In this document: positions 2,778 to 57,744 of the stretch, piece after piece
How positions within the stretch are numbered: the first letter of the stretch is position 1
Layout of the letters: the number at the start of each line of letters is the position of its first letter
Origin: Planctomycetota bacterium
GTDB lineage: Bacteria > Planctomycetota > JAJSAM01 > JAJVHW01
Reading direction: 5' to 3'
Assembly: GCA_965248445.1 (NCBI GenBank)
Contig: CBDFJG010000003.1
Span: 1,152,001-1,216,000 of the forward strand
Length of the DNA stretch: 64,000 bases
Translations under genes and position numbers: made by a program
The notes under the pieces: model-generated
Database searches by the model: none
The model's input: the letters and a program-made list of their open reading frames with translations, nothing else
Told to the model about the DNA's origin: nothing

Positions 2778-5275
2778 GCCGCCTGACCGAGATCGTCGTC
2801 CGTGGCGCACGCGAGCACAACCTGCGCGGTGTCGACGTGCGCGTGCCCCACGGCACGTTCACGGTGATCAGCGGCGTCTCCGGCAGCGGCAAGACGTCGC
2901 TCGCCCGCGACACGATTCACGCAGAGGGCCGGCGGCGGTATCTCGAGTCGCTGTCTGCGTTCGCGCGACAGTTTGTCGAGAGGGTGCCACGTCCGGATGT
3001 CGAGGAGATCGCGGGCCTCCCCCCCACCGTCGCGATCGATCAGCGCACCACGCGCGGGGGCGCCCGGGCCACGGTCGCCTCGATGTCCGACGTGCTCGAC
3101 TACCTGCGCCTGCTGTGGGCGCGGCTCGGCACGCGGCACTGCGAGCGATGCGGCGAACCAGTCACCGCCACATCGCGTGAGCGTATCCGCAAGGAGGTCG
3201 CCCGGCTCGGCGGCCGCAAGAAGCGCGTGCATCTGCTCGCCCCGATGGTGCGGCGCCGCAAGGGCTTCCACACCGACGTGTTCCGGCGTCTCGCGCGGCT
3301 GGGGATCGAGCGCGTCCGCGTGGACGGAGAAGGGCAGGAGGTCGACGCGACAACACGGCTCTCGCGCTATCACGAGCATTCGATCGAAGCGGTCGTCGCG
3401 ACGGCGCGCACCACCACGGCCCATCGCGACGAGCTTGACGCCGGCATCGAGCGGGCACTCGACATCGGCAAGGGGACGCTGCTCGCGGCTGCTGCGGATG
3501 ATCTGGCCGACGCCGTGCTGTTCTCGGCCGTGTCGGCCTGCGCGGAGTGCGGGATCGCGTACCGCTCGCTCGAACCGGGCGACCTGTCGTGGAGCTTGAA
3601 GCGCGGCCAGTGCGGCCGCTGCCGCGGACGGGGTACCGAGGAGACGGACGGCGACGGCGAGCCCGCCCCGTGCAAGCGATGCGACGGCGCGCGGCTCGGC
3701 AAGGCATCGCGGGGTGTGCGCTACCACGGCCTCGGCCTGCACGAGTTCCTGGCGCACACGATCACCGACGCGCGGGCTTGGCTCCTCGCGATCGACCCCG
3801 CCTCCGAACGCGAATCGGTCGTGCTGACCCCGGTGCGGGACGAGGTCGCGGCGCGACTGGCGTTCGTGGCGGACGTCGGGTTGTCCTATCTGTCGCTCGA
3901 CCGCGGGGCGCGCACGCTGTCGGGTGGCGAGTCGCAACGCGTGCGGCTTGCGTCCCAACTGGGAACCGGCCTGCGCGGTGTCTGCTACGTGCTGGATGAA
4001 CCGACGATCGGGCTCCACCCGGTGGACACGACACGGCTCCTCGGCACGCTGACGTCTCTGGCGGACGGCGGCGCAACGCTGCTGGTCGTCGAGCACGACG
4101 AGGACACGATCCGCGCAGCGGATCTGGTCATCGACCTCGGCCCGGGCGCCGGCGTCCACGGCGGCCGAATCGCAGCCGTCGGCTCCCCCGCCGACCTCGC
4201 CAGGCGCCGGGCGGGAGTCACTGGCGAATGGCTCGCGCGCGCCGCCGAGAAGAGCGAACCGCGCAAGTGCCGCGACACGAGCGGCCCGGCGATCCGCCTG
4301 AAGGATGTGACGGCACGGAACCTCCGCGGCATCGACGTTGCGTTCCCCGTCGGTGCGCTGACGTGCGTCACGGGAGTCTCAGGCAGCGGTAAGAGCACGC
4401 TCGTGCGTCACGTGCTGCTGCCGGTACTGCTGCGGAAGCTCGACCGCAAGGGTCCGGCACCCGGCGCGCACCGCTCCTCGTCCGTTCCGCCGGACGTGCA
4501 GGCCGTCGTGGAGGTCGACCAGAGTCCGATCGGGAAGACGTCGCGGAGTGTCCCGGCCACGTACACCAAACTGATGGACCCGCTGCGCAAGCTGTTCGCC
4601 GAGACGATCGAGGCGCGCGCGCGTGGGTTCACCGCGTCACGCTTCTCGTTCAACTCGGGTCCGGGGCGGTGCCCTGAATGCCAGGGCCGCGGCGCGATCA
4701 AGATGGAGATGAGCTTCCTCCCGGACGTGCGTGTGGAGTGCGATCAGTGCGGCGGGGCGCGCTACGACGAGGAGACCCTCGCCGTCACGATCGCCGGCCA
4801 CTCCATCGCCGAAGCGCTCGACATGCCGATCGCGCAAGCGCGTCCCATCTTCTCGGCGTTCCCCAAGATCGCGCGCGTGCTCGACGTGCTGGACGACGTC
4901 GGACTCGGTTACCTGCGGCTCGGCCAGCCGTCTCCCACGCTCTCCGGCGGCGAAGCGCAACGCGTGAAACTCGCAACGGAGATGGCGCGCCGCAGAAAGG
5001 GCGGCCGCGTGTACCTGCTCGACGAACCGACCACCGGATTACACGCGCAGGACGTCGACCGCCTGATCGCCGTGCTGCATGATCTCGTGGAACTCGGCAA
5101 CACAGTGGTCGTGATCGAGCACCAAATGGACGTGATCGCAGCCGCGGATCACGTCATCGACCTGGGCCCCGGCGGCGGCGCCGCGGGCGGCGGTCTGGTC
5201 GCCTCGGGTACGCCCGAGCAGGTCGCCCGCGTCAAGCGTTCCGCCACCGGTCGGTGCCTGGCAGCCCGCGTCTAG
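2774..5275 (+). CDS. uvrA: Excinuclease ABC subunit A (UvrA), module 2
   Basis: GTG start overlaps the previous TGA (GTGA). Begins IVVRGAREHNLRGVDV...GVSGSGKTSLARDTIHAEGRRRYLES and has two complete ABC NBDs. The ORF-track start at 2555 is too far upstream. Confidence 0.92.
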   Translation: MSRLTEIVVRGAREHNLRGVDVRVPHGTFTVISGVSGSGKTSLARDTIHAEGRRRYLESLSAFARQFVERVPRPDVEEIAGLPPTVAIDQRTTRGGARATVASMSDVLDYLRLLWARLGTRHCERCGEPVTATSRERIRKEVARLGGRKKRVHLLAPMVRRRKGFHTDVFRRLARLGIERVRVDGEGQEVDATTRLSRYHEHSIEAVVATARTTTAHRDELDAGIERALDIGKGTLLAAAADDLADAVLFSAVSACAECGIAYRSLEPGDLSWSLKRGQCGRCRGRGTEETDGDGEPAPCKRCDGARLGKASRGVRYHGLGLHEFLAHTITDARAWLLAIDPASERESVVLTPVRDEVAARLAFVADVGLSYLSLDRGARTLSGGESQRVRLASQLGTGLRGVCYVLDEPTIGLHPVDTTRLLGTLTSLADGGATLLVVEHDEDTIRAADLVIDLGPGAGVHGGRIAAVGSPADLARRRAGVTGEWLARAAEKSEPRKCRDTSGPAIRLKDVTARNLRGIDVAFPVGALTCVTGVSGSGKSTLVRHVLLPVLLRKLDRKGPAPGAHRSSSVPPDVQAVVEVDQSPIGKTSRSVPATYTKLMDPLRKLFAETIEARARGFTASRFSFNSGPGRCPECQGRGAIKMEMSFLPDVRVECDQCGGARYDEETLAVTIAGHSIAEALDMPIAQARPIFSAFPKIARVLDVLDDVGLGYLRLGQPSPTLSGGEAQRVKLATEMARRRKGGRVYLLDEPTTGLHAQDVDRLIAVLHDLVELGNTVVVIEHQMDVIAAADHVIDLGPGGGAAGGGLVASGTPEQVARVKRSATGRCLAARV

Positions 5276-31602: not shown

Positions 31603-32190
31603 GTACCTGTTCAGCCCTTGATCTGACCGAGGATCCAGATTGTTCCGACGCGGGTCGATGAAGAGTGTGTGGGCACCGACGAGTTGCGCGAGCTGGTCGA
31701 GCGGATGTCGCGTCGGCTGAACGACGCGGAGGAGACGATCGCGTCGCAAGCGGAGGTGATCGAGCGTCAGGCAGCCCGCATCGACGAGCTCGAGAGCCGA
31801 TTGCGACGCGACTCCCGCACATCGTCGCGGCCGCCCTCGTCGGACCCGTCGTGGTCCAAGAGGCGGCGGCGGCGCAAGCCGCCGTCTGACAAGAAGCAGG
31901 GTGCGCAGTCGGGTCACGAGGGCACGACGCGCCAGCTCGTGGACGAGTCCGAGGTCGATGATGTCCAGGACCACCGTCCGCAGGAGTGCAGCTCCTGCGG
32001 TAGCGGCGCACTCATTGCGGTCGATCGTGCCCCCACGCGGCAGCAGGTCTTCGCGCTACCGCCGCGACTGGTCCACGTGACCGAGCACCGGCTGCACCGC
32101 GCTCGCTGCACAGGGTGTGGGATGACGTCCACGGGGCGTCTGCCCGATGGCGTCACCGCCAGTCCCTTCGGTCCACGGCTCACCGCACTG
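31603..32190 (+). mobile_element. IS66-family (single-ORF type) left fragment, interrupted by IS3
   Basis: Starts GTACCTGTTCAG, similar to GTAACCGTTCAC at 62874. ORF from 31669 has RDSRTSSRPPSSD, GAQSGHEG, CxxC..CxxC and FGPRLTAL, homologous to the 62941 ORF. Confidence 0.85.
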
Positions 32191-32245
32191 TGGAGTTCCC
32201 CCGGTTCGGTGGACACCCGACCACTGAGGTTGGGAGGATGTCCAG

Positions 32246-32560
32246 ATGCCCAGATCGAGACCACCGTACGACGAGGAGTACAAGCGCCAGATCGTCGAGT
32301 TGCACCGCGCCGGCCGGAGCGTGATGAGCCTGTGCCGCGAGTTCGAGCCGACGGAGATGACGATCCGCAAGTGGATCAAGCAGGCCGCGCTGGACGCCGG
32401 AGAGCGTGACGACGGCTTGACCACCGCGGAGCGCGATGAGCTGCGCAAGCTCAGACGAGATGTGCGCCGGCTGCGCGAGGAGCGCGACATCTTGAAAAAA
32501 GCCGCGGCCTGGTTCGCTCGGGAGACGCGCTCGATCCCAGAGAAGGGTTCGGGTTCGTGA
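32246..32560 (+). CDS. IS3 transposase OrfA
   Basis: YDEEYKRQIVEL HTH, ERDILKKAAAWFA; A6G slippery site at 32495-32501. Confidence 0.92.
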   Translation: MPRSRPPYDEEYKRQIVELHRAGRSVMSLCREFEPTEMTIRKWIKQAALDAGERDDGLTTAERDELRKLRRDVRRLREERDILKKAAAWFARETRSIPEKGSGS

Positions 32561-33414
32561 GCGATCACCAGGCAGAGCACGACGTGGCCACCATGTGTCG
32601 GGTCCTCGGCGTCTCGAGGAGCGGGTACTACGCATCGCGCGGCCGTGCGCCCTCGAAGAGAGATCGCGAGGACGCTGCCCTGACCGAGCGCGTCCGCGAG
32701 ATCCACGAGCGCTCTCGCCAGACGTACGGATCACCGCGCATCCATGCCGAGCTGCGCTACGAGGGCCTCCACATCGGTAGGAAGCGCGTCGAGCGCCTCA
32801 TGCGCCAGGCTGGGATCGAGGGCGTGAGCCGCCGCAAGAGAGCCAAGACCACGAAGCGCTCGCAGCGTCAGGCGCCGGCCGCCGACCTGGTCGATCGCGA
32901 CTTCACGGCCGACGCACCCGATCAGCTCTGGGTGGCCGACATCACGTACGTGCCGACCTGGACGGGGTTCCTGTACCTGGCGGTCGTCCTCGACGTCTGG
33001 AGCCGCCGGATCGTCGGCTGGTCCATGGCCACGACGCTCCACACCAAGATCGTGCTGGACGCACTCGAGATGGCCGTGCGCCAGCGCCAGCCCCTCGGAG
33101 TCGTCCACCACTCCGACCAGGGCTGCCAGTACACGTCGCTCGCCTTCGGGCGGCGCTGCAGAGAAGCGGGCGTCAGGCCGTCCATGGGATCGGTCGGAGA
33201 CGCCTACGACAACGCCATGTGCGAGAGCTTCTTCGCCACGCTCGAGACCGAGTTGATCGACCGCACCAGCTTTTCGACCAAGTCCGCAGCGCGGTTGGCG
33301 GTGTTCGACTTCATCGAGGGCTTCTACAATCCGCAGCGGCGACACTCCTCCATCGAGGACCTGTCGCCGATCGAGTTCGAGCGCAGATTCCGGCAGAGGG
33401 CCGGAGTTGCATAG
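32557..33414 (+). CDS. IS3 transposase OrfB (DDE); OrfAB probably made by -1 frameshift
   Basis: TYGSPRIHAEL, WVADITY, HHSDQGCQY, DNAMCESFF, FYNPQRRHS. Confidence 0.95.
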   Translation: MSDHQAEHDVATMCRVLGVSRSGYYASRGRAPSKRDREDAALTERVREIHERSRQTYGSPRIHAELRYEGLHIGRKRVERLMRQAGIEGVSRRKRAKTTKRSQRQAPAADLVDRDFTADAPDQLWVADITYVPTWTGFLYLAVVLDVWSRRIVGWSMATTLHTKIVLDALEMAVRQRQPLGVVHHSDQGCQYTSLAFGRRCREAGVRPSMGSVGDAYDNAMCESFFATLETELIDRTSFSTKSAARLAVFDFIEGFYNPQRRHSSIEDLSPIEFERRFRQRAGVA

Positions 33415-33447
33415 CCCCCGGGTGTCCACCGAACCGGGGGAACTCCA

Positions 33448-34127
33448 GTTCGAGTCGGACGCAAGCGCGTCGAGCGACTCATGCGCGAGGCGGGCATCGA
33501 GGGCGTGAGCCGGCGCAAGCGGACGAGGACGACGAAGCGGGCCAAGCGTCACGCACCCGCCGCCGATCTCGTCGACCGCGACTTCACGGCCCACGCCCCG
33601 GACGAGCTCTGGGTCGCGGACATCACGTACGTGCCGACCTGGTCGGGCTTCCTCTACCTCGCCGTCGTCCTCGACGTCTGGAGCCGGCGCATCGTCGGCT
33701 GGTCGATGGCGACGACCTTGCACACCAAGATCGTGCTGGACGCGCTGGAGATGGCCGTTCGTCAGCGTCAGCCCCTCGGCGTCGTGCACCACTCCGACCA
33801 GGGCTGTCAGTACACGTCACTCGCGTTCGGGAAGCGGTGTCGAGAGGCCGGCGTCCGGCCGTCCATGGGCAGCGTCGGCGACGCCTACGACAACGCCATG
33901 TGCGAGAGCTTCTTCGCCACGCTCGAGATGGAGCTCATCGATCGCACCAGCTTCCCGACGAAGTCCGCAGCACGCCTCGCTGTGTTCGACTTCATCGAGG
34001 GCTTCTACAATCCGCAGCGGCGACACTCCTCCATCGAGGACCTGTCGCCCATCGAGTTCGAGAGGCGGCGACGGCCGGAGGCCGCCGTGTCATAGTCCCC
34101 GGGTGTCCACCGAACCGGGGGAACTCC
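33448..34127 (+). mobile_element. 3' remnant of a second, closely related IS3; its terminal A is displaced to 36109 by the intron
   Basis: OrfB fragment (VGRKRVERLMREAG...EAAVS*) diverged from the first copy; right IR CGGGTGTCCACCGAACCGGGGGAACTCC lacks its final A. Confidence 0.92.
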
Positions 34128-36108
34128 GTGCGCCACGAAGGTGTCGATGTCCAGCAAGTGAGAGTCTTGTCCGTGAAACTGACGGTCCACCACGGTAGCT
34201 ACCCGGGCACGGTCGGTCGGCAACGATCGGCGGTGAAGCCCCGGGGACAGGGGGCCGCTTCTGGCGGTCCGGCAAACCCGCAGGCCGCAATGCGTGTGAA
34301 TCCTGAGCAGGCCCCGAAAGTGAAGTCGCAGACGCCGACCCGCCGGAGTTACGGGGAAGGCCGCAGCGCGTCCGGGAAGCGACCGTCAAGCGCACCGGGT
34401 GCGGTCCGCCGGGGTATGGGGAGCAGCATGCGGGGAAGGACATCGTCGCAACGTGGGAGGCCCGGTCGGGTGCGGGGTCGTTGCCCGCAGCGTCACATCT
34501 GGTGGCGGCCTGGCCGGGAGTCGGACGGGTGCGTAGTACCGCTGAAGCCGGGTAGTGCCGGTGGAGGGAAGGCGCCCTACGTCTGGGACGCTCTCGAAGC
34601 GGCCAAGGGTCGGGGATTGGCGTGAGCCTGGTAACCCCACCGAAGATCCGGCGGCTGCAGAGGAAGCTCTACGCGAAGGCGAAACAGGAGCCGGGCTTTC
34701 GCTTCTACCAGCTCTACGACAAGGTCCACCGGGAGGACATCTTGGCCCATGCGTACGCGCTCTGCCGCAGCAACGGTGGTGCGCCCGGCGTGGACGGGGT
34801 GGACTTCGCGGAGATCGAGTCAGCGGGGCTTGCGGAGTGGCTGTCGCGGCTCGGGGAGGAAGTGCGGAGCAAGAGATACAAGCCGGACCCGGTGCGCCGG
34901 GTCCTGATTCCGAAACCTGGTGGTGGCGAGCGCCCGCTTGGGATTCCGACCATTCGGGACCGAGTGGTGCAGACCGCTGCCAAGCTGATCCTGGAATCGA
35001 TCTTCGAGGCGGACTTCGAGGACTGTGCCTTCGGGTACCGTCCGAAGAGAAGCGCCCAGCAGGCGGTGAAGGCCGTGCACCGGGCCCTTTGTCAGGGCTA
35101 CACGGACGTGGTCGACGCCGACCTGTCGAAGTACTTCGACACGATCCCGCATCATGCACTGATGCATTCGGTGGCCCGCCGTGTGATGGACCGCCATATG
35201 CTGAAGCTCATCAAGGGCTGGCTGAAGGTGCCGGTCTGGGAGCGGGACGGCGACGGACGCACGCGGATGTCGGGCGGCAAGAAGAGTCGCTGCGGCACGC
35301 CGCAGGGCGGCGTCATCAGCCCCCTGCTCGCAAACGTGTACATGCACCGCTTCTTGCGGGCATGGCGCGAACGCGGCAAGGGCTACGCGTTTCGGGCGCA
35401 CATCGTCAACTACGCGGACGACTTCGTCATCCTGAGCCACGGCAACGCGGCAGAGGCTCTGGCGTGGACGCGCGGTGTGATGGGCGCCATCGGCCTTTCG
35501 CTGAACGAGACCAAGACTCGCCTGTGCAACGGTCGCACGGAGTGCTTCGACTTCTTGGGCTACACCTTCGGCCCGGCGCGCTACTGGAAGACCGGGAGCG
35601 CATACCTGGGAGCGATGCCGTCGAAGAAGGCGGTGGCGCGGCTGAAGCGCCGTGTCCACGAGGAACTGGGAAGAGGGATTGTCTCGCCGTGGGACGAGGT
35701 GCGTCTACGCCTGAACCGGGTCCTCCGGGGCTGGTCGGCGTACTTCAACTACGGCGCGCGCCGCAAGTCGTACCGAGCGATCGACAACTACGTCGAGAGC
35801 GCGGTGCGCGACTTTCTCCAGCGCCGCCACAAGGTGCCTGGACGGGGCATTCGGCGCTTCGGCGCGGCCACGATCTTCGGGCCGCTCGGCGTGCTGCGTC
35901 TGCGTGACGTGCAACTGGATGGACTGTGACAGCCAACGCGAGAACCCAGTCGGGAAGCCGGATGCGGGAGATCCGCACGTCCGGTTTGACGAGCGGGGGC
36001 GGAAGACGGAGCTACGACGGGACCTGAGGCACCGGCACCGTGGCGAAAGCCGCCGGCGAACTGCTACTCATCCCGATCTATGGCCACCGCGTCCGCCCTC
36101 GACTCCAC
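34128..36108 (+). ncRNA. Group II intron (IIB-like ribozyme, 1981 nt)
   Basis: 5' GTGCG at 34128; domain V AAGCCGGATGCGGGAGATCCGCACGTCCGGTTT (35955-35987, AGC triad); long domain VI; 3' end CTCGACTCCAC. EBS1 GGAGTT (34345-34350) is complementary to the 5' exon AACTCC. Confidence 0.93.
34622..35929 (+). CDS. ltrA: Group II intron reverse transcriptase/maturase (no HNH endonuclease domain)
   Basis: APGVDG, RPLGIPTIRDRVVQ, GTPQGGVISPLLAN, YADD, FDFLG, and X-domain LRGWSAYF; 435 aa. Confidence 0.96.
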   Translation: MSLVTPPKIRRLQRKLYAKAKQEPGFRFYQLYDKVHREDILAHAYALCRSNGGAPGVDGVDFAEIESAGLAEWLSRLGEEVRSKRYKPDPVRRVLIPKPGGGERPLGIPTIRDRVVQTAAKLILESIFEADFEDCAFGYRPKRSAQQAVKAVHRALCQGYTDVVDADLSKYFDTIPHHALMHSVARRVMDRHMLKLIKGWLKVPVWERDGDGRTRMSGGKKSRCGTPQGGVISPLLANVYMHRFLRAWRERGKGYAFRAHIVNYADDFVILSHGNAAEALAWTRGVMGAIGLSLNETKTRLCNGRTECFDFLGYTFGPARYWKTGSAYLGAMPSKKAVARLKRRVHEELGRGIVSPWDEVRLRLNRVLRGWSAYFNYGARRKSYRAIDNYVESAVRDFLQRRHKVPGRGIRRFGAATIFGPLGVLRLRDVQLDGL

Positions 36109-36138
36109 ACTGGTTCTGTACCGGCGAGGGCTCGCGCC

Positions 36139-37344: not shown

Positions 37345-38820
37345 CAGCGTGTTGAAAAACCGCGTCCCGGCCGATTCTTAGAAGTAGGGGTCGGCCCGGG
37401 AGGACGGTCATGGCATTGGGTAGGCGTGGCGAGGAGCAACAGGGGGCGTTGTGGGTGGCTGCGGAGCGACTGAGGTCGCCGGGGCACCCGTTTTACGACG
37501 CGCTCAACCGCCTCCTGGCCGAGATCGACTTCGACCCGCGGATCGAGGAGTTGTGTGCGTCGTACTACGGCGAAGGCGGTCGCCCGAGCATCCCGCCCGG
37601 CGTGTACTACCGCATGCTGTTCGTGGGCTACTTCGAAGGTCTTGGTAGCCAGCGCGCGATCGAGTGGCGCTGCGCGGACAGCCTGTCGCTTCGCAGCTTC
37701 CTGGGGCTCTCGGCGAGCGATCGCGTGCCGGACCACTCCTCGCTCACGCGCATCCGGCAGCGTCTGGCGCTCGAGATCGACGAGGCGGTGCACCATATGG
37801 TGCTGGGACTGGCGGCGACCAAGGATCTGTTGGAGGGCAAGACGCTGGGGGTGGACGTGACGCTGATCGAGGCGTGCGCGGCGATGCGGCGCATCGTGCG
37901 TCGCGAGGACGGCAAGGACTGGAAGCAGTACGTGAAGGGGCTTGCCGAGCAGGATGGCGTGGAGATCCGGGACGACGAGGATCTGCGGCGCTACGACAAG
38001 AAGCGCCGCAAGAAACGGGTGAGCAACAAGGAGTGGGAGTCGCCGACGGACGAAGACGCGCGCATCGCCAAGATGAAGGACGGCCGCACGCGCCTGGCCT
38101 TCAAGGTCCAGCACGCCGTCGCCATGCAGAGCGGCATCGTGGTGGACGCCGCGGCGCACACGGCCGACACCGCGGACTCCGCCGCGATCGAGGAGGGTGT
38201 GCTCTGCGCGCAGGTGCATATGGACGAGGCCGACGCCGACGCGCAGGTCGCTGAGGTCGTGGCCGACAAGGGCTACCACAAGGCCGAGGTGCTGGCGGCC
38301 CTCACGGAGAGCGGACTGCGCACCTACGTGCCCGAGCGCAGCGACGCGCAGCGGCGGCGCTGGATGGACAAGCCGGCGAGTTGGAAGAGCGCGGTGTACG
38401 GGAACCGCCGGCGCGTGAAGGGCACCTACGGCAAGGCACTGCAGCGTCGCCGCGGCGAGATGGTCGAACGGAGCTTCGCGCACGCGTGTGACAGCGGAGG
38501 CATGCGTCGATCGACGTTACGCGGACTGCTGAACGTCCACCGACGAGTGCTCGTGCAGGCCGTCGCCATGAACCTCGGGACGATCCTGCGCTCGATGATC
38601 GGCGTGGGGACTCCCAAGCGGCTGGCGGAGGCGTCGAAGGGCCTTGCAGCGGTCGGATGCGGCGTCTCTCGAGCCCTTCGAGCCGCGGCGGCGGTGCTCC
38701 GTGCCGCGAAAGTGCGAGGCGGCCTCGGCGAGGTGTCCGCGACTTGGTCCCGGACCGGGCCGTCCCAACCGCGCCCATCGAGAGCACTCGCGGCGTGAGG
38801 GCCGCTTCTTCAACACGCTG
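37345..38820 (+). mobile_element. IS1182/IS5-like insertion sequence
   Basis: IRs CAGCGTGTTGAA ... TTCAACACGCTG; flanked by CTAG and CTAA. Confidence 0.85.
37410..38798 (+). CDS. Transposase (DUF772-type N-terminus plus DDE; IS1182-like)
   Basis: GRPSIPP, PDHSSLTRIRQR, TDEDAR, ADKGY, VERSFA. Confidence 0.9.
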   Translation: MALGRRGEEQQGALWVAAERLRSPGHPFYDALNRLLAEIDFDPRIEELCASYYGEGGRPSIPPGVYYRMLFVGYFEGLGSQRAIEWRCADSLSLRSFLGLSASDRVPDHSSLTRIRQRLALEIDEAVHHMVLGLAATKDLLEGKTLGVDVTLIEACAAMRRIVRREDGKDWKQYVKGLAEQDGVEIRDDEDLRRYDKKRRKKRVSNKEWESPTDEDARIAKMKDGRTRLAFKVQHAVAMQSGIVVDAAAHTADTADSAAIEEGVLCAQVHMDEADADAQVAEVVADKGYHKAEVLAALTESGLRTYVPERSDAQRRRWMDKPASWKSAVYGNRRRVKGTYGKALQRRRGEMVERSFAHACDSGGMRRSTLRGLLNVHRRVLVQAVAMNLGTILRSMIGVGTPKRLAEASKGLAAVGCGVSRALRAAAAVLRAAKVRGGLGEVSATWSRTGPSQPRPSRALAA

Positions 38821-38824
38821 CTAA

Positions 38825-40493
38825 CCCGAATCGTTCACCAGCCGGGAATCTGAGCGGGCCGTCGTCTGTCTAAGTGCTCGTACGCGCCAGTACTTGCACC
38901 GACAGGAGCGCCGGCCCGATGACGACAGACTGTAGCCCGCAGGGGACCCTCTTCGCGGGCATCTGTGGACGCACCGCGGTGACGCGCTTCGACGCGGGTA
39001 CCGTGACGAGCGACGGGGGCGTGCTGCTGCTCGAGCGGACCGATCGTCGCATCGATCTGCTCTCGCGGTTTGCGCGCTGCTTCCGCGATCACCGCGACCC
39101 GCGTCGGGTCGAGCACACGGTCGGCCAGATGCTGCGTCAGCGGGTCTTCGGGCTGTGCGCGGGCTACGAGGATCTGGTGGACCACGACCATGTCGGCAAG
39201 GACCCGCTGTTTGCCGCGGCGTGCGGCAAGCGCGAGGGTGCTCTGGCCACGCACCCGACGCTCTCGCGGCTCGAGACCACGCAGCTCGGCGCCACGGCAC
39301 AGACGCGCTACGCCAAGATCGAGATGGACCAGGAGCGCGTGGACAGCGTGCTCAGCGACGTCTTCTGCGAGGCCATGGGGCCGGAGGATCCGGGCCTGCT
39401 CGTGCTGGACCTGGACCACTCCGACGTGCGGCTGCACGGCCGGCAGGAGGGCCGCTTCTTCCACGGCTACTACGGGCACTACTGCTACCTGCCGCTGTAC
39501 GTCTTCTGCGGCGAGCACCTCTTGCTCGCTCGGCTCCAGACCGCTGACAGAGATCCCGCGCGCGGAGTCGTGGACGAGCTCCGTGCGCTGGTCTTACGTC
39601 TGCGGCGCCGCTGGCCCCGGGCCAAGGTGCTCGTGCGCGCAGACTCGGGCTTTTGCCGCGAGGAGCTGATGGCCTGGTGCGAGGCCGCCGGCCACTTCTA
39701 CCTGCTGGGCATGGCGCGCAATGAGCGCCTTGAGCGACACGTCGAAGACGCGCTCGATGAGGCCGCAGCCCGTGCCGTGCAGACCGGCCGAGCAGCCCGG
39801 GTCTTTCGCGACTTTGCCTGGACCACGCTGGGGAGCTGGAGCCAGAGGCGTCGCGTGGTCGCCAAGGCCGAGCACCTGCCGGGCGGCAAGCGCAATCCCC
39901 GCTTCGTGGTGACCAATCTGCCGCCTCGTAGCTGGAGCAGCAAGCGTCTCTACGAGCAGCTCTACTGCGCCCGGGGCGAGGCGGAGAATCGCATCAAGGA
40001 GCAGCAGCTCGAGCTCTTCGGCACCCGTCTGTCGGTGCACACGATGCAGGGCAACGCCGTGCGGATGGCCATGTCGGCCATGGCCTACGTCCTGACCTGT
40101 GCGCTGCGACGCATCGGTCTCGCCGGCACCGAGATGGCGCGTGCGCAAGCCGGCACGATCCGCCTGCGGCTGCTCAAGATCGGCGCGCTCGTGCGGATCA
40201 CGACGCGCCGGATCTGGGTCTCGATGTCCTCGTCGTGGCCCTGGCAGCACGTCTTCGAGCGCTGCGCGCAACGACTGCTGGCATCCCCGAAGCCGACCTG
40301 ACGTCCCGCCGCGCCGTCCGCCACACCACCGCCCGGCCTACGGTCTGCCCACACCGCAGAATCCGCGCCGTTTCGGCCGCTCACTCGCGTTGCCCTTGTG
40401 GCAACGACGACAGCATCCGCCCTCGCCTGGCCAAGATCTGACCCTGTGGACTCCGAAAGCACCGTCATCGCGATGTCTCGTGAACAGATGCGG
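38825..40493 (+). mobile_element. IS1380-family element, copy 1 (1669 bp)
   Basis: IRs CCCGAATCGTTCAC / GTGAACAGATGCGG; near-identical to the inverted copy at 55618-57286. Confidence 0.93.
38919..40301 (+). CDS. IS1380 family transposase
   Basis: FDAGTVTSDGG, GYED..DHD, LHGRQEG.FFHGYYGHYCYLPL, RADSGF, YCARGEAENRIKE. Confidence 0.95.
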   Translation: MTTDCSPQGTLFAGICGRTAVTRFDAGTVTSDGGVLLLERTDRRIDLLSRFARCFRDHRDPRRVEHTVGQMLRQRVFGLCAGYEDLVDHDHVGKDPLFAAACGKREGALATHPTLSRLETTQLGATAQTRYAKIEMDQERVDSVLSDVFCEAMGPEDPGLLVLDLDHSDVRLHGRQEGRFFHGYYGHYCYLPLYVFCGEHLLLARLQTADRDPARGVVDELRALVLRLRRRWPRAKVLVRADSGFCREELMAWCEAAGHFYLLGMARNERLERHVEDALDEAAARAVQTGRAARVFRDFAWTTLGSWSQRRRVVAKAEHLPGGKRNPRFVVTNLPPRSWSSKRLYEQLYCARGEAENRIKEQQLELFGTRLSVHTMQGNAVRMAMSAMAYVLTCALRRIGLAGTEMARAQAGTIRLRLLKIGALVRITTRRIWVSMSSSWPWQHVFERCAQRLLASPKPT

Positions 40494-40555
40494 CTAGCGG
40501 CGCGGATCGCACCGCCAGTCGCCTTTGCCTTCCGGTGGGCAAGTTGCCCCAAGCG

Positions 40556-55546: not shown

Positions 55547-55617
55547 CGTGTGCTCCCCTCGAGGCACGCGCTCCGAGGCGAGGCCGTGTTGCGGCAGCGC
55601 CATTTCTGCACCGCTAG

Positions 55618-57286
55618 CCGCATCTGTTCACGAGACGTCGCGATGACGGTGCTTTCGGAGTCCACAGGGTCAGATCTTGGCCAGGCGAGGGCGGATGCTG
55701 TCGTCGTTGCCACAAGGGCAACGCGAGTGAGCGGCCGAAACGGCGCGGATTCTGCGGTGTGGGCAGACCGTAGGCCGGGCGGTGGTGTGGCGGACGGCGC
55801 GGCGGGACGTCAGGTCGGCTTCGGGGATGCCAGCAGTCGTTGCGCGCAGCGCTCGAAGACGTGCTGCCAGGGCCACGACGAGGACATCGAGACCCAGATC
55901 CGGCGCGTCGTGATCCGCACGAGCGCGCCGATCTTGAGCAGCCGCAGGCGGATCGTGCCGGCTTGCGCACGCGCCATCTCGGTGCCGGCGAGACCGATGC
56001 GTCGCAGCGCACAGGTCAGGACGTAGGCCATGGCCGACATGGCCATCCGCACGGCGTTGCCCTGCATCGTGTGCACCGACAGACGGGTGCCGAAGAGCTC
56101 GAGCTGCTGCTCCTTGATGCGATTCTCCGCCTCGCCCCGGGCGCAGTAGAGCTGCTCGTAGAGACGCTTGCTGCTCCAGCTACGAGGCGGCAGATTGGTC
56201 ACCACGAAGCGGGGATTGCGCTTGCCGCCCGGCAGGTGCTCGGCCTTGGCGACCACGCGACGCCTCTGGCTCCAGCTCCCCAGCGTGGTCCAGGCAAAGT
56301 CGCGAAAGACCCGGGCTGCTCGGCCGGTCTGCACGGCACGGGCTGCGGCCTCATCGAGCGCGTCTTCGACGTGTCGCTCAAGGCGCTCATTGCGCGCCAT
56401 GCCCAGCAGGTAGAAGTGGCCGGCGGCCTCGCACCAGGCCATCAGCTCCTCGCGGCAAAAGCCCGAGTCTGCGCGCACGAGCACCTTGGCCCGGGGCCAG
56501 CGGCGCCGCAGACGTAAGACCAGCGCACGGAGCTCGTCCACGACTCCGCGCGCGGGATCTCTGTCAGCGGTCTGGAGCCGAGCGAGCAAGAGGTGCTCGC
56601 CGCAGAAGACGTACAGCGGCAGGTAGCAGTAGTGCCCGTAGTAGCCGTGGAAGAAGCGGCCCTCCTGCCGGCCGTGCAGCCGCACGTCGGAGTGGTCCAG
56701 GTCCAGCACGAGCAGGCCCGGATCCTCCGGCCCCATGGCCTCGCAGAAGACGTCGCTGAGCACGCTGTCCACGCGCTCCTGGTCCATCTCGATCTTGGCG
56801 TAGCGCGTCTGTGCCGTGGCGCCGAGCTGCGTGGTCTCGAGCCGCGAGAGCGTCGGGTGCGTGGCCAGAGCACCCTCGCGCTTGCCGCACGCCGCGGCAA
56901 ACAGCGGGTCCTTGCCGACATGGTCGTGGTCCACCAGATCCTCGTAGCCCGCGCACAGCCCGAAGACCCGCTGACGCAGCATCTGGCCGACCGTGTGCTC
57001 GACCCGACGCGGGTCCCGGTGGTCCCCGAAGCAGCGCGCAAACCGCGAGAGCAGATCGATGCGACGATCGGTCCGCTCGAGCAGCAGCACGCCCCCGTCG
57101 CTCGTCACGGTACCGGCGTCGAAGCGCGTCACCGCGGTGCGTCCACAGATGCCCGCGAAGAGGGTCCCCTGCGGGCTACAGTCTGTCGTCATCGGGCCGG
57201 CGCTCCTGTCGGTGCAAGTACTAGCGAGTACGAGCACTTAGACAGACGACGGCCCGCTCAGATTCCCGGCTGGTGAACGATTCGGG
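55618..57286 (-). mobile_element. IS1380-family element, copy 2 (1669 bp), with CTAG target duplication
   Basis: CTAG at 55614-55617 and 57287-57290; same IRs as copy 1. Confidence 0.95.
55810..57192 (-). CDS. IS1380 family transposase
   Basis: Nearly identical to 38919-40301. Confidence 0.95.
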   Translation of the reverse strand: MTTDCSPQGTLFAGICGRTAVTRFDAGTVTSDGGVLLLERTDRRIDLLSRFARCFGDHRDPRRVEHTVGQMLRQRVFGLCAGYEDLVDHDHVGKDPLFAAACGKREGALATHPTLSRLETTQLGATAQTRYAKIEMDQERVDSVLSDVFCEAMGPEDPGLLVLDLDHSDVRLHGRQEGRFFHGYYGHYCYLPLYVFCGEHLLLARLQTADRDPARGVVDELRALVLRLRRRWPRAKVLVRADSGFCREELMAWCEAAGHFYLLGMARNERLERHVEDALDEAAARAVQTGRAARVFRDFAWTTLGSWSQRRRVVAKAEHLPGGKRNPRFVVTNLPPRSWSSKRLYEQLYCARGEAENRIKEQQLELFGTRLSVHTMQGNAVRMAMSAMAYVLTCALRRIGLAGTEMARAQAGTIRLRLLKIGALVRITTRRIWVSMSSSWPWQHVFERCAQRLLASPKPT

Positions 57287-57744
57287 CTAGCCGGTCCGTC
57301 GCGACTCGTCTCTGTGGGTTGGCTGCGCCGACTGTTTCGGATTTCTTGGCGGGCGAGCCCGTCCAAGCCCGTTCACACGTGTAGCGGTGGACCTGCACCT
57401 GCGGTACGTCGCGAGCGGCTGTCGCGAAGGAGAGCATCTGGATGCCCGAGCCCAGCGTCTCCGCGTCTCCCGCCCCCACACGGGAACATGAACGGGAGAT
57501 GAACGAGCCCACTTGCGCAGCGCCGCCGCGGCGTGTAAGACCGTCAGCGGGGGCAGCGGGAGTGTGCGGCGCTAGCAGCGACGCGCGAGGAGAGCGATCA
57601 CGCTCGCTGCGGAGCTTCATGCCGCGAACACAGGTCACTCGCAGGCTCAATCTGACTCGGCGCCCAGCCTTGGGCCTCGGGCAGCTTCGCGCGTCGGCCC
57701 CAGCGGCGCGGATCACGCGCCGCCGTCCTGCTCGGGCGGCCCGC

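Follow-up and report, generated by a model that had tools for sequence, protein, structure and literature searches.

In a stretch of 64,000 nucleotides from a Planctomycetota bacterium (assembly GCA_965248445.1, contig CBDFJG010000003.1, positions 1,152,001 to 1,216,000 of the forward strand; hereafter the window, numbered from its first letter), a group II intron lies inside the last two bases of an insertion sequence (IS) of the IS3 family, and the question raised by this locus is whether the intron is adapted to such a place or has landed there by chance. An earlier note on this DNA, made from the sequence alone, had proposed that the intron specifically parasitises IS ends. The analysis presented here assigns a probability of about 0.6 to the reading that an intact group II intron with IIB-type recognition and without endonuclease, whose protein is closest to the g3/class F group, occupies a site in the terminal CA of an IS3 repeat that is cognate for its own guides. 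The cognate nature of the site and the habit of the clade of living in transposon ends are real, and the case that the window intron itself actively and specifically parasitises IS3 ends rests on one occupied site of 24.

The intron inside the terminal CA of an IS3 repeat

Read directly, the right end of the IS3 copy runs ...CCGGGGGAACTCC up to position 34127, where the intron begins with GTGCG; the intron ends in CTCGACTCCAC (34128-36108, forward strand, 1981 nucleotides, nt) and is followed by A36109 and unrelated DNA. Because every other IS3 copy in the genome terminates in ...AACTCCA and then passes into variable DNA, A36109 is the last base of the IS3 element. The intron splits the terminal CA of the right inverted repeat, between C34127 and A36109, and its removal restores the end of the intron-free copy, GAACTCCA at 33440-33447, whose mirror image TGGAGTT is found at 32191-32197. 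This arrangement had been described in the earlier note, and it has been borne out by the direct reading together with the 3' motif of the family, the boundaries of the published intron Ni.ha.I1 and the structure of domain VI. The two targets per IS copy counted in the same note are also present, as the copies end in TGGAGTT...AACTCCA and free targets lie at 33441-33447 and 32191-32197. The interrupted element (about 33455-34127, forward strand) is an older IS3-family copy that shows 86% identity to the complete upstream element over positions 585-1257 of the latter; its 5' half is gone, its right inverted repeat serves the intron as 5' exon, and its truncated orfB (33481-34095) retains an rve match in Pfam.

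The sequence between these limits is a complete and real group II intron. A segment of domain I (34152-34295, forward strand) matched the Rfam model RF02003 (group-II-D1D4-4) with 81.6 bits against a gathering score of 49, and domain V, a hairpin with a 2-nt bulge and with the AGC triad at its start, was located at 35955-35987 (forward strand) by Rfam alignment and by RNAalifold, which was run on the 19 sequences having the long form of domain VI. In these sequences all 13 pairs of domain V are retained, several of them with compensatory changes, and for domain V and the basal helix of domain VI together compensatory changes were found in 12 of the 26 predicted pairs. Domain VI (35991-36105, forward strand, RNAalifold) has a long internal insertion and carries in its basal helix the unpaired A36102, the presumed branch point, which is the seventh base from the 3' end of the intron and is followed by three pairs and three free bases up to the splice site.

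Both ends are common to the family, the 5' GTGCG being of the GUGYG type and the 3' terminus being CTCGACTCYAC in 76 distinct stretches compared from domain V to the 3' end. The same boundary convention reproduces the published limits of Ni.ha.I1 (CP000320, 75444-77354), and the identity between the window intron and a partial second copy in the genome stops at 36108, within 3 nt. With regard to intactness, the YADD motif, the AGC triad, the unpaired A, an open frame of 435 amino acids and both splice-site motifs are all present. Among the contigs from four sequencing runs of one sample none joins 34127 to 36109, which says nothing on splicing or on intron-less alleles, and the sole base difference in these contigs, 35938 G>A, matches the second intron copy.

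The intron-encoded protein (34622-35929, forward strand, 435 amino acids) is a reverse transcriptase with YADD (NYADDF in the translation) and a maturase. It scored 359.9 bits on TIGR04416 (group II reverse transcriptase/maturase, NCBI; cut-off 300) and matched RVT_1 (5.4e-36) and GIIM (6.1e-11) in Pfam. The intron had been called endonuclease-minus in the earlier note, and the Pfam search agrees, giving RVT_1 and GIIM only, with no endonuclease (D/En, HNH) after domain X and a protein that stops about 28 amino acids past the GIIM match. The C-terminal motif of class D, LX3AX3PXLF[V/A]HW, is not in the translation, nor is 'HW' anywhere in it. An identity of 64.0% over 428 amino acids was found with the protein of Ni.ha.I1 (Nitrobacter hamburgensis X14 plasmid 1, inside CP000320 75444-77354), an intron listed as 'g3, Bacterial F' in Table S2 of Toro and Martinez-Abarca 2013 (PMC3552965), whose class F groups it with Ni.ha.I2 and D.a.I1 in trees of the reverse transcriptase and X domain, and by this similarity the protein would be nearest to the g3/class F group.

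The guide pairings were compared with those of related introns collected at 78 loci from one genome per species, at the best 80 of 582 loci from metagenomes, and as copies from two genomes of the same family (G002 and G003). The last six bases before the intron, AACTCC (34122-34127, forward strand, read directly), form the intron-binding site 1 (IBS1), and all six make Watson-Crick pairs with GGAGTT (34345-34350, forward strand), the exon-binding site 1 (EBS1), in the loop of a hairpin CCCG.../...CGGG. This loop, flanked by CNCC and GGGGAAG at about 213-222 nt from the start of the intron, pairs at no fewer than five of six positions (G-U allowed) with the last six exon bases in 42 of the 44 distinct intron/site combinations, the window included, and 23 different EBS1 loop sequences are represented among them. 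The 5' boundary and EBS1 are confirmed by this covariation, which places EBS1 in the same loop as the earlier note and not elsewhere. Two site calls fall short, L135 with 2 and L060 with 3 of 6 bases paired; they are probably erroneous or ectopic, the 'exon' of L135 containing the 5' end of an intron.

EBS3 had to be displaced by 2 nt. The base proposed before, T34415, is almost invariant in the relatives and does not covary with the 3' exon; the covarying base is T34417 (forward strand), the base after GGGGTA, which pairs with A36109 (forward strand, read directly), so that the terminal A of the IS3 right end acts as IBS3. The base homologous to T34417 and the first base of the 3' exon make a Watson-Crick pair at 34 of 43 distinct sites (G-C 19, T-A 9, A-T 5 and C-G 1), a G-U pair at 3 and a mismatch at 6, and over 1000 shufflings of the pairings the Watson-Crick count averaged 14.8 and never exceeded 24. 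As predicted from these comparisons, the recognition scheme is of the IIB type (EBS1, EBS3). A candidate EBS2, AACCCG (34275-34280, forward strand), was located in the homologous loop GCAA-ACCCGCA-GGCC, with CGGGGG at -12 to -7 (34116-34121, forward strand) as candidate IBS2.

At 36101-36107 the 3' end of the intron itself reads GACTCC|A, which can pair with its EBS1 (with one G-U pair) and EBS3 and mimics the target two bases ahead of the genuine 3' splice site, and the 5' junction AACTCC|G could be re-invaded via a U-G pair at EBS3. Head-to-tail copies of such a kind are reported for RmInt2 in PMC4615759. No tandem intron copy is present at the window locus.

Transposon ends as targets of the relatives

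Related introns with 72-79% nucleotide identity were found at many loci of the same-family genomes G002 and G003. At 16 of their 17 distinct 5' junctions the motif TA[AG]CCCG[GC]ATC[AG]TTCA stands directly before the intron, with unrelated DNA further upstream, and the identical 17-nt motif precedes relatives from several phyla. An IS1380-family transposase gene lies in the 3' flank of L003, L042, L180 and L195 (NF033539, 305-355 bits, cut-off 180); L003 is the closest relative, with a protein 77% identical, among the loci from one genome per species. Downstream of the intron an inverted copy of the motif was located at 1641 nt (L003), 1606 nt (L180) and 1622 nt (L195), and a weak one at about 1593 nt in L042, and at other loci the partner repeat is 149 nt (L192) or 98 nt (L027) downstream, or 178-228 nt in 5 of the 9 3' flanks of G003. 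These partner repeats and transposase genes indicate that the IS1380 terminal repeat has these 17 nt at its outer edge and that the relatives sit 17 nt inside the tip. Judging by the sequence of their flanks, the L192, L027 and G003 copies sit in miniature, transposase-less IS1380 derivatives, and it is among the G003 relatives that many copies homed in repeats of IS type, here IS1380-type miniature elements, are seen. The target of these introns, read from the outside inward, is CTAGCCCGGATnnTCA|C, with TGAACG, TGAGAA or TGAATG as EBS1 and G as EBS3.

In G003 the 3' exons of loci L116-L120 and L096 share about 46 nt (CGAGGACGCCACGCCTGGCGGTCCCGAG...), with the partner repeat 178-228 nt downstream, and the introns of this genome have spread into miniature inverted-repeat elements of one family, akin to IS1380 ends.

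In a quick protein tree, in which the rows L047, L020 and L005-L010 were disregarded (faulty frames, very long branches), the window protein groups with L003, L121, L187 and L192 (SH-aLRT 90), and the IS1380-type motif is scattered over the entire tree. Since the nearest relatives sit in IS1380 terminal repeats and their miniature derivatives, life in transposon termini is a trait of this clade, whose older target is probably the IS1380 repeat. A search of one paper library for group II introns with IS1380, or with terminal inverted repeats as homing sites, found nothing on the present clade.

The host genome itself contains 85 IS1380 transposase matches above the NCBIfam cut-off (NF033539), most of them near-identical, as a result of the massive expansion of one 1681-bp element. 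One copy lies in the window at 38820-40500 (forward strand, 1681 bp), with the termini CTAACCCGAATCGTTCA|C and CTAGCCGCATCTGTTCA|C, and a second one, 99.5% identical, at 55611-57291 (reverse strand). These termini are of the target type used by the relatives of the intron, and all the copies, including these two, are intron-free. The guides are GGAGTT/T (EBS1/EBS3) in the resident intron versus TGAACG/G in L003, and the resident intron cannot pair with the IS1380 ends and does pair with the IS3 tip.

The distal part of the 5' exon, from -17 to -10 (CTAACCCG vs CGAACCGG), is alike in the IS3 and IS1380 targets at 6 of 8 positions; sites were scored for this motif with a weight matrix built from the targets of 16 relatives. 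This is a modest, after-the-fact hint that the contact of the protein with the distal exon may have been kept while the RNA guides changed. Under the reading preferred here, the lineage would have derived from introns targeting IS1380 repeats and would have moved to the IS3 tip through changes in EBS1 and EBS3, a switch possibly helped by the similar distal motif. By analogy with RmInt1 and RmInt2, a lariat-protein particle would reverse-splice into the top strand between C34127 and A36109 and, because there is no endonuclease, cDNA synthesis would be primed by the nascent strand at the replication fork. The insertion being 32 nt past the transposase stop codon, no protein should need splicing and no host gene would be lost. 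At the end of the repeat ...CTCC-A would now be replaced by ...CTCC-G, the true terminal A lying 1,981 nt off, and this end is probably disabled: transposase cleavage and strand transfer there should be blocked.

Occupancy, copies and alternative explanations

The claim that this intron specifically parasitises IS ends stands in part, as the fit of EBS1 and EBS3 to the site and the habit of the clade in IS1380 repeats favour it and several observations weigh against it. The genome has 24 exact IS3 tips (CCGGGGGAACTCC), on ten full IS copies plus partial ones, and the intron occupies one of them; the other 23, on IS copies 98-100% alike, are free. The occupied copy is the old, truncated, 86% identical one, and there is no sign that the intron enters present-day copies. 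The geometry differs too, because the relatives read the IS tip inward, whereas the window intron reads it outward and has 1 nt of the IS in its 3' exon. The candidate EBS2 pairs with the candidate IBS2 at only 4 of 6 bases, and a complement search with a shuffle test gave no significant covariation across the family (2.70 observed; shuffles averaged 2.47 and reached at most 2.82). The likeness of the distal motif is modest and noticed after the fact, since, of 1331 non-tip AACTCC[AG] sites, 29 score as well over -17 to -10 and 149 do so over the longer span of -17 to -7. Finally, GC skew places both intron copies on the presumed lagging strand, opposite to the bias reported for RmInt1 and RmInt2, a point of little weight, the skew being weak (about 0.01-0.02) and the region rearranged.

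The search for additional copies adds further points on the same side. One intron-encoded protein gene is present in the whole genome, in which no other full intron copy was found. The second copy is a 250-nt 3' fragment at another locus, with a different 3' flank (C3:487033-487282, reverse strand; L002, G000:C3:485533-488782), whose 5' exon is gone because it abuts an IS66 transposase fragment, so that its site is not scorable. The single base difference in its 250 nt argues for a recent copying event, as far as can be judged from sequence. Both copies have ACT right after the intron and CT follows only 1 of the 23 free tips, so that a requirement beyond the tip (CT at +2 and +3) might exist, with two copies that would agree by chance 1 time in 16. 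On its 5' side the fragment is fused to an IS66-family transposase gene of the opposite strand (C-terminal part), with a Mutator-family transposase beyond; in the window, an IS66 transposase is represented by its N-terminal part immediately before the IS3 pair.

Outside this genome, the copies and reverse transcriptase relatives that the earlier note proposed to gather have been tabulated with their flanks and EBS1. The proposed test of EBS1 against different IS tips covers relatives that target other elements, in which EBS1 covaries with the exon; no second copy with the specificity of the window intron was found in the collections searched, none of the loci having EBS1 GGAGTT, and the best protein identities were 77% (one genome per species) and 72% (best 80 of 582 metagenome loci). 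When the junction pattern was searched in 401 genomes of the phylum, no exact match was obtained outside the host genome. Matches with two mismatches were as frequent as in a reversed control, and none of the 19 looked at, out of 38, had intron or IS3 DNA. The low spread at present may be due to weak activity, to a need beyond the tip (for example the +2 and +3 bases) or to an arrival before the present IS3 burst.

It is possible, if rather unlikely, that the intron is a fossil that once homed into IS3 tips and is now (nearly) immobile, the present IS3 copies having multiplied later and being free for this reason. The divergence and truncation of the occupied copy, beside ten full-length copies that are 98-100% alike and all intron-free, would fit such a history, as would the single protein gene of the genome. 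Against it speak the open reading frame, YADD, domain V, unpaired A and splice-site motifs, all of them intact, and the near-identity of the second fragment.

An ectopic insertion is considered unlikely. The natural homing site would then be another AACTCC|A, perhaps in another replicon or host, and the IS3 tip would be a chance fit of seven bases, as could be suspected from the low occupancy, the 402 AACTCCA sites of the genome, the incomplete EBS2 pairing, the lost 5' exon of the second copy and the lack of the junction in any other of the 401 phylum genomes searched. But 23 of these 402 sites are free IS3 tips, so that an intron landing at random on AACTCC|A sites would hit an IS3 tip in about 6% of cases, and yet the sole full copy is in one. 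Moreover, the nearest relatives specialise in the terminal repeats of IS elements, and the IS3 tip is in the top 2-3% of AACTCC sites for the distal motif of these relatives (-17 to -10).

A wrong 3' boundary, with an intron that ends at 36077 and whose removal does not restore the IS end, is very improbable, since the RF00029 (Intron_gpII) alignment that sets domain VI and the 3' end there (35953-36077) scores 37.5 bits against a gathering score of 40 and needs a 40-nt insertion, and since 36108 is where the 3' motif of the family, the published Ni.ha.I1 limit and the last identity with the second copy put the end, in agreement with the compensatory changes of domain VI and with the EBS3 covariation. 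The low score and the misplaced end of RF00029 are explained by the unusual length of domain VI; an insertion of about 70 nt is present in this domain in part of the family, and the RF00029 end is thereby off by 31 nt.

Known systems and surroundings of the intron

Homing into IS inverted repeats by an intron without endonuclease is already in print for RmInt2, the sole characterised example, and the window intron does not define a new category. According to PMC4615759 and PMC5894124, RmInt2 of Sinorhizobium meliloti GR4, a class D intron without endonuclease, has all its seven copies in left or right inverted repeats of ISRm17; its mobility and target rules were tested experimentally, and such introns are proposed by the authors to restrain IS spread. 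Two sites per IS, on opposite strands and one of them facing the favourable strand, are described in PMC4615759. The window intron is similar to RmInt2 in having no endonuclease domain, a U-A pair between EBS3 and IBS3 and, probably, a homing site in an IS terminal inverted repeat; RmInt2 tolerates a partial EBS2-IBS2 match (4 pairs). The same sources allow several differences to be listed: the host element is ISRm17 for RmInt2 and an IS3-family IS for the window intron; RmInt2 has the class D motif, which the window protein, nearest to g3/class F, does not have; RmInt2 is a seven-copy intron of experimentally proven mobility, whereas the window intron is one full copy and one fragment, known from sequence alone; and the minimal RmInt2 target spans -16 to +7, whereas only +1 belongs to the IS in the window. 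The 24 tips do not show the RmInt2 pattern of several independent insertions into the repeats of one IS at both of its ends.

RmInt1, associated with ISRm2011-2, likewise has no endonuclease; it is dedicated to an IS and uses priming at the replication fork, as is proposed for the window intron, and it differs in being of class D and in inserting inside the transposase gene and not in the terminal repeat (PMC4615759 and PMC5894124). Ni.ha.I1 shares the 5' GTGCGCC and 3' CTCGACTCTAC ends, has EBS1 and EBS3 at homologous positions and also lies in transposable-element DNA, its locus being listed as 'Transposase, IS4' (PMC3552965, Table S2); it differs in having TTTTGC as EBS1 and in interrupting a transposase coding region (5' exon ...GGCAAGA, 3' exon AAATCG...) and not an IS tip. 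The relatives in IS1380 repeats have the same RNA ends and again recognise a transposon end, with the differences in target position and EBS3 given above. What is new is the different class of open reading frame, the use of IS1380 with its miniature derivatives and of the IS3 tip as targets, and the insertion one base from the tip, where the 3' exon gives only IBS3 and the target lies nearly all in the 5' exon; a retargeting between IS families, from IS1380 to IS3, is apparent.

Introns homing into IS ends have no host cost and may immobilise the IS, which makes them candidate natural regulators of IS load. They could also be scaffolds for gene targeting with short, RNA-defined targets, and related introns with differing EBS1 and EBS3 and with known targets are a natural series for how retargeting happens.

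The intron is part of a pile-up of mobile elements across 31.6-36.2 kb of the window, made up of an IS66 fragment, a complete IS3, the older IS3 copy and the intron. The first is the N-terminal fragment of an IS66-family transposase gene (31669-32190, forward strand; DUF6444 and zf-IS66 in Pfam), whose reading frame is broken at the left end of the IS3 element. The complete, intron-free IS3-family element (32191-33447, forward strand, 1257 bp, 353.5 bits on NF033516 with a cut-off of 160) contains orfA (32246-32560, HTH_Tnp_1 in Pfam), orfB (32557-33414, rve in Pfam) and a slippery run AAAAAAG (A6G) at 32495-32501, and its inverted repeats TGGAGTT...AACTCCA have the 5'-TG...CA-3' ends expected for the IS3 family. 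This element (junctions 32187-32193 and 33445-33451) abuts the truncated older copy; no 3-bp target duplication was found around it, its flanks being ..CTG and GTT.., and the left end of the occupied copy is lost. The missing duplication and the abutting copies point to deletion or recombination between IS copies and not to a simple insertion.

A sister sub-lineage with EBS1 ACGGTG was found in two alphaproteobacterial metagenome-assembled genomes (L005-L014, L020, L053 and L054), inserted in many loci after ...GTCACCGT. In several cases the site forms one arm of a short palindromic pair (ACGGTGACAGTGCATTC ... AAATGCACTGTCACCGT), and in L012 and L013 it adjoins an open reading frame for a Y1/RAYT-like transposase (REP_Tyr_transpos, 70.2 bits, cut-off 80), so that it looks as if REP-type repeats serve as homing sites for this sub-lineage. 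The 3' exon directly following the intron of L007 (about 4436-4530) and L008 (about 4436-4560) is built from odd short tandem variants of ...CCGTAAT... (such as AATAGTAATAACCCGTAATAACCACGTAATAACCGTAATAACG), which gives the impression of a reiterated target junction.

A broader proposal can be advanced tentatively, and is held to be doubtful: a whole branch of the g3/class F introns would be made up of obligate hyper-parasites of transposon termini (IS1380 repeats, miniature elements, REP-like palindromes near RAYT-like genes and the IS3 tip), which hop between transposon families by changing only EBS1 and EBS3 while the protein still reads a similar distal motif, and which brake IS spread by splitting the terminal CA. 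If this were true, the present host genome would be its counter-example, with 85 IS1380 matches and 23 free IS3 tips versus a single retargeted intron, as if the insertion sequences had escaped.

In another sub-lineage (L026, L029, L137, L138 and L135), which has EBS1 TTCATT, the insertion point is ...GATTGAATGA[AG]|, where ABC_sub_bind (PF04392) genes have their boundary. Its EBS3 is mismatched with the 3' exon at 3 of 3 sites. An ABC_sub_bind open reading frame ends at the 5' exon of these introns, and in L138 another one starts in the 3' exon.

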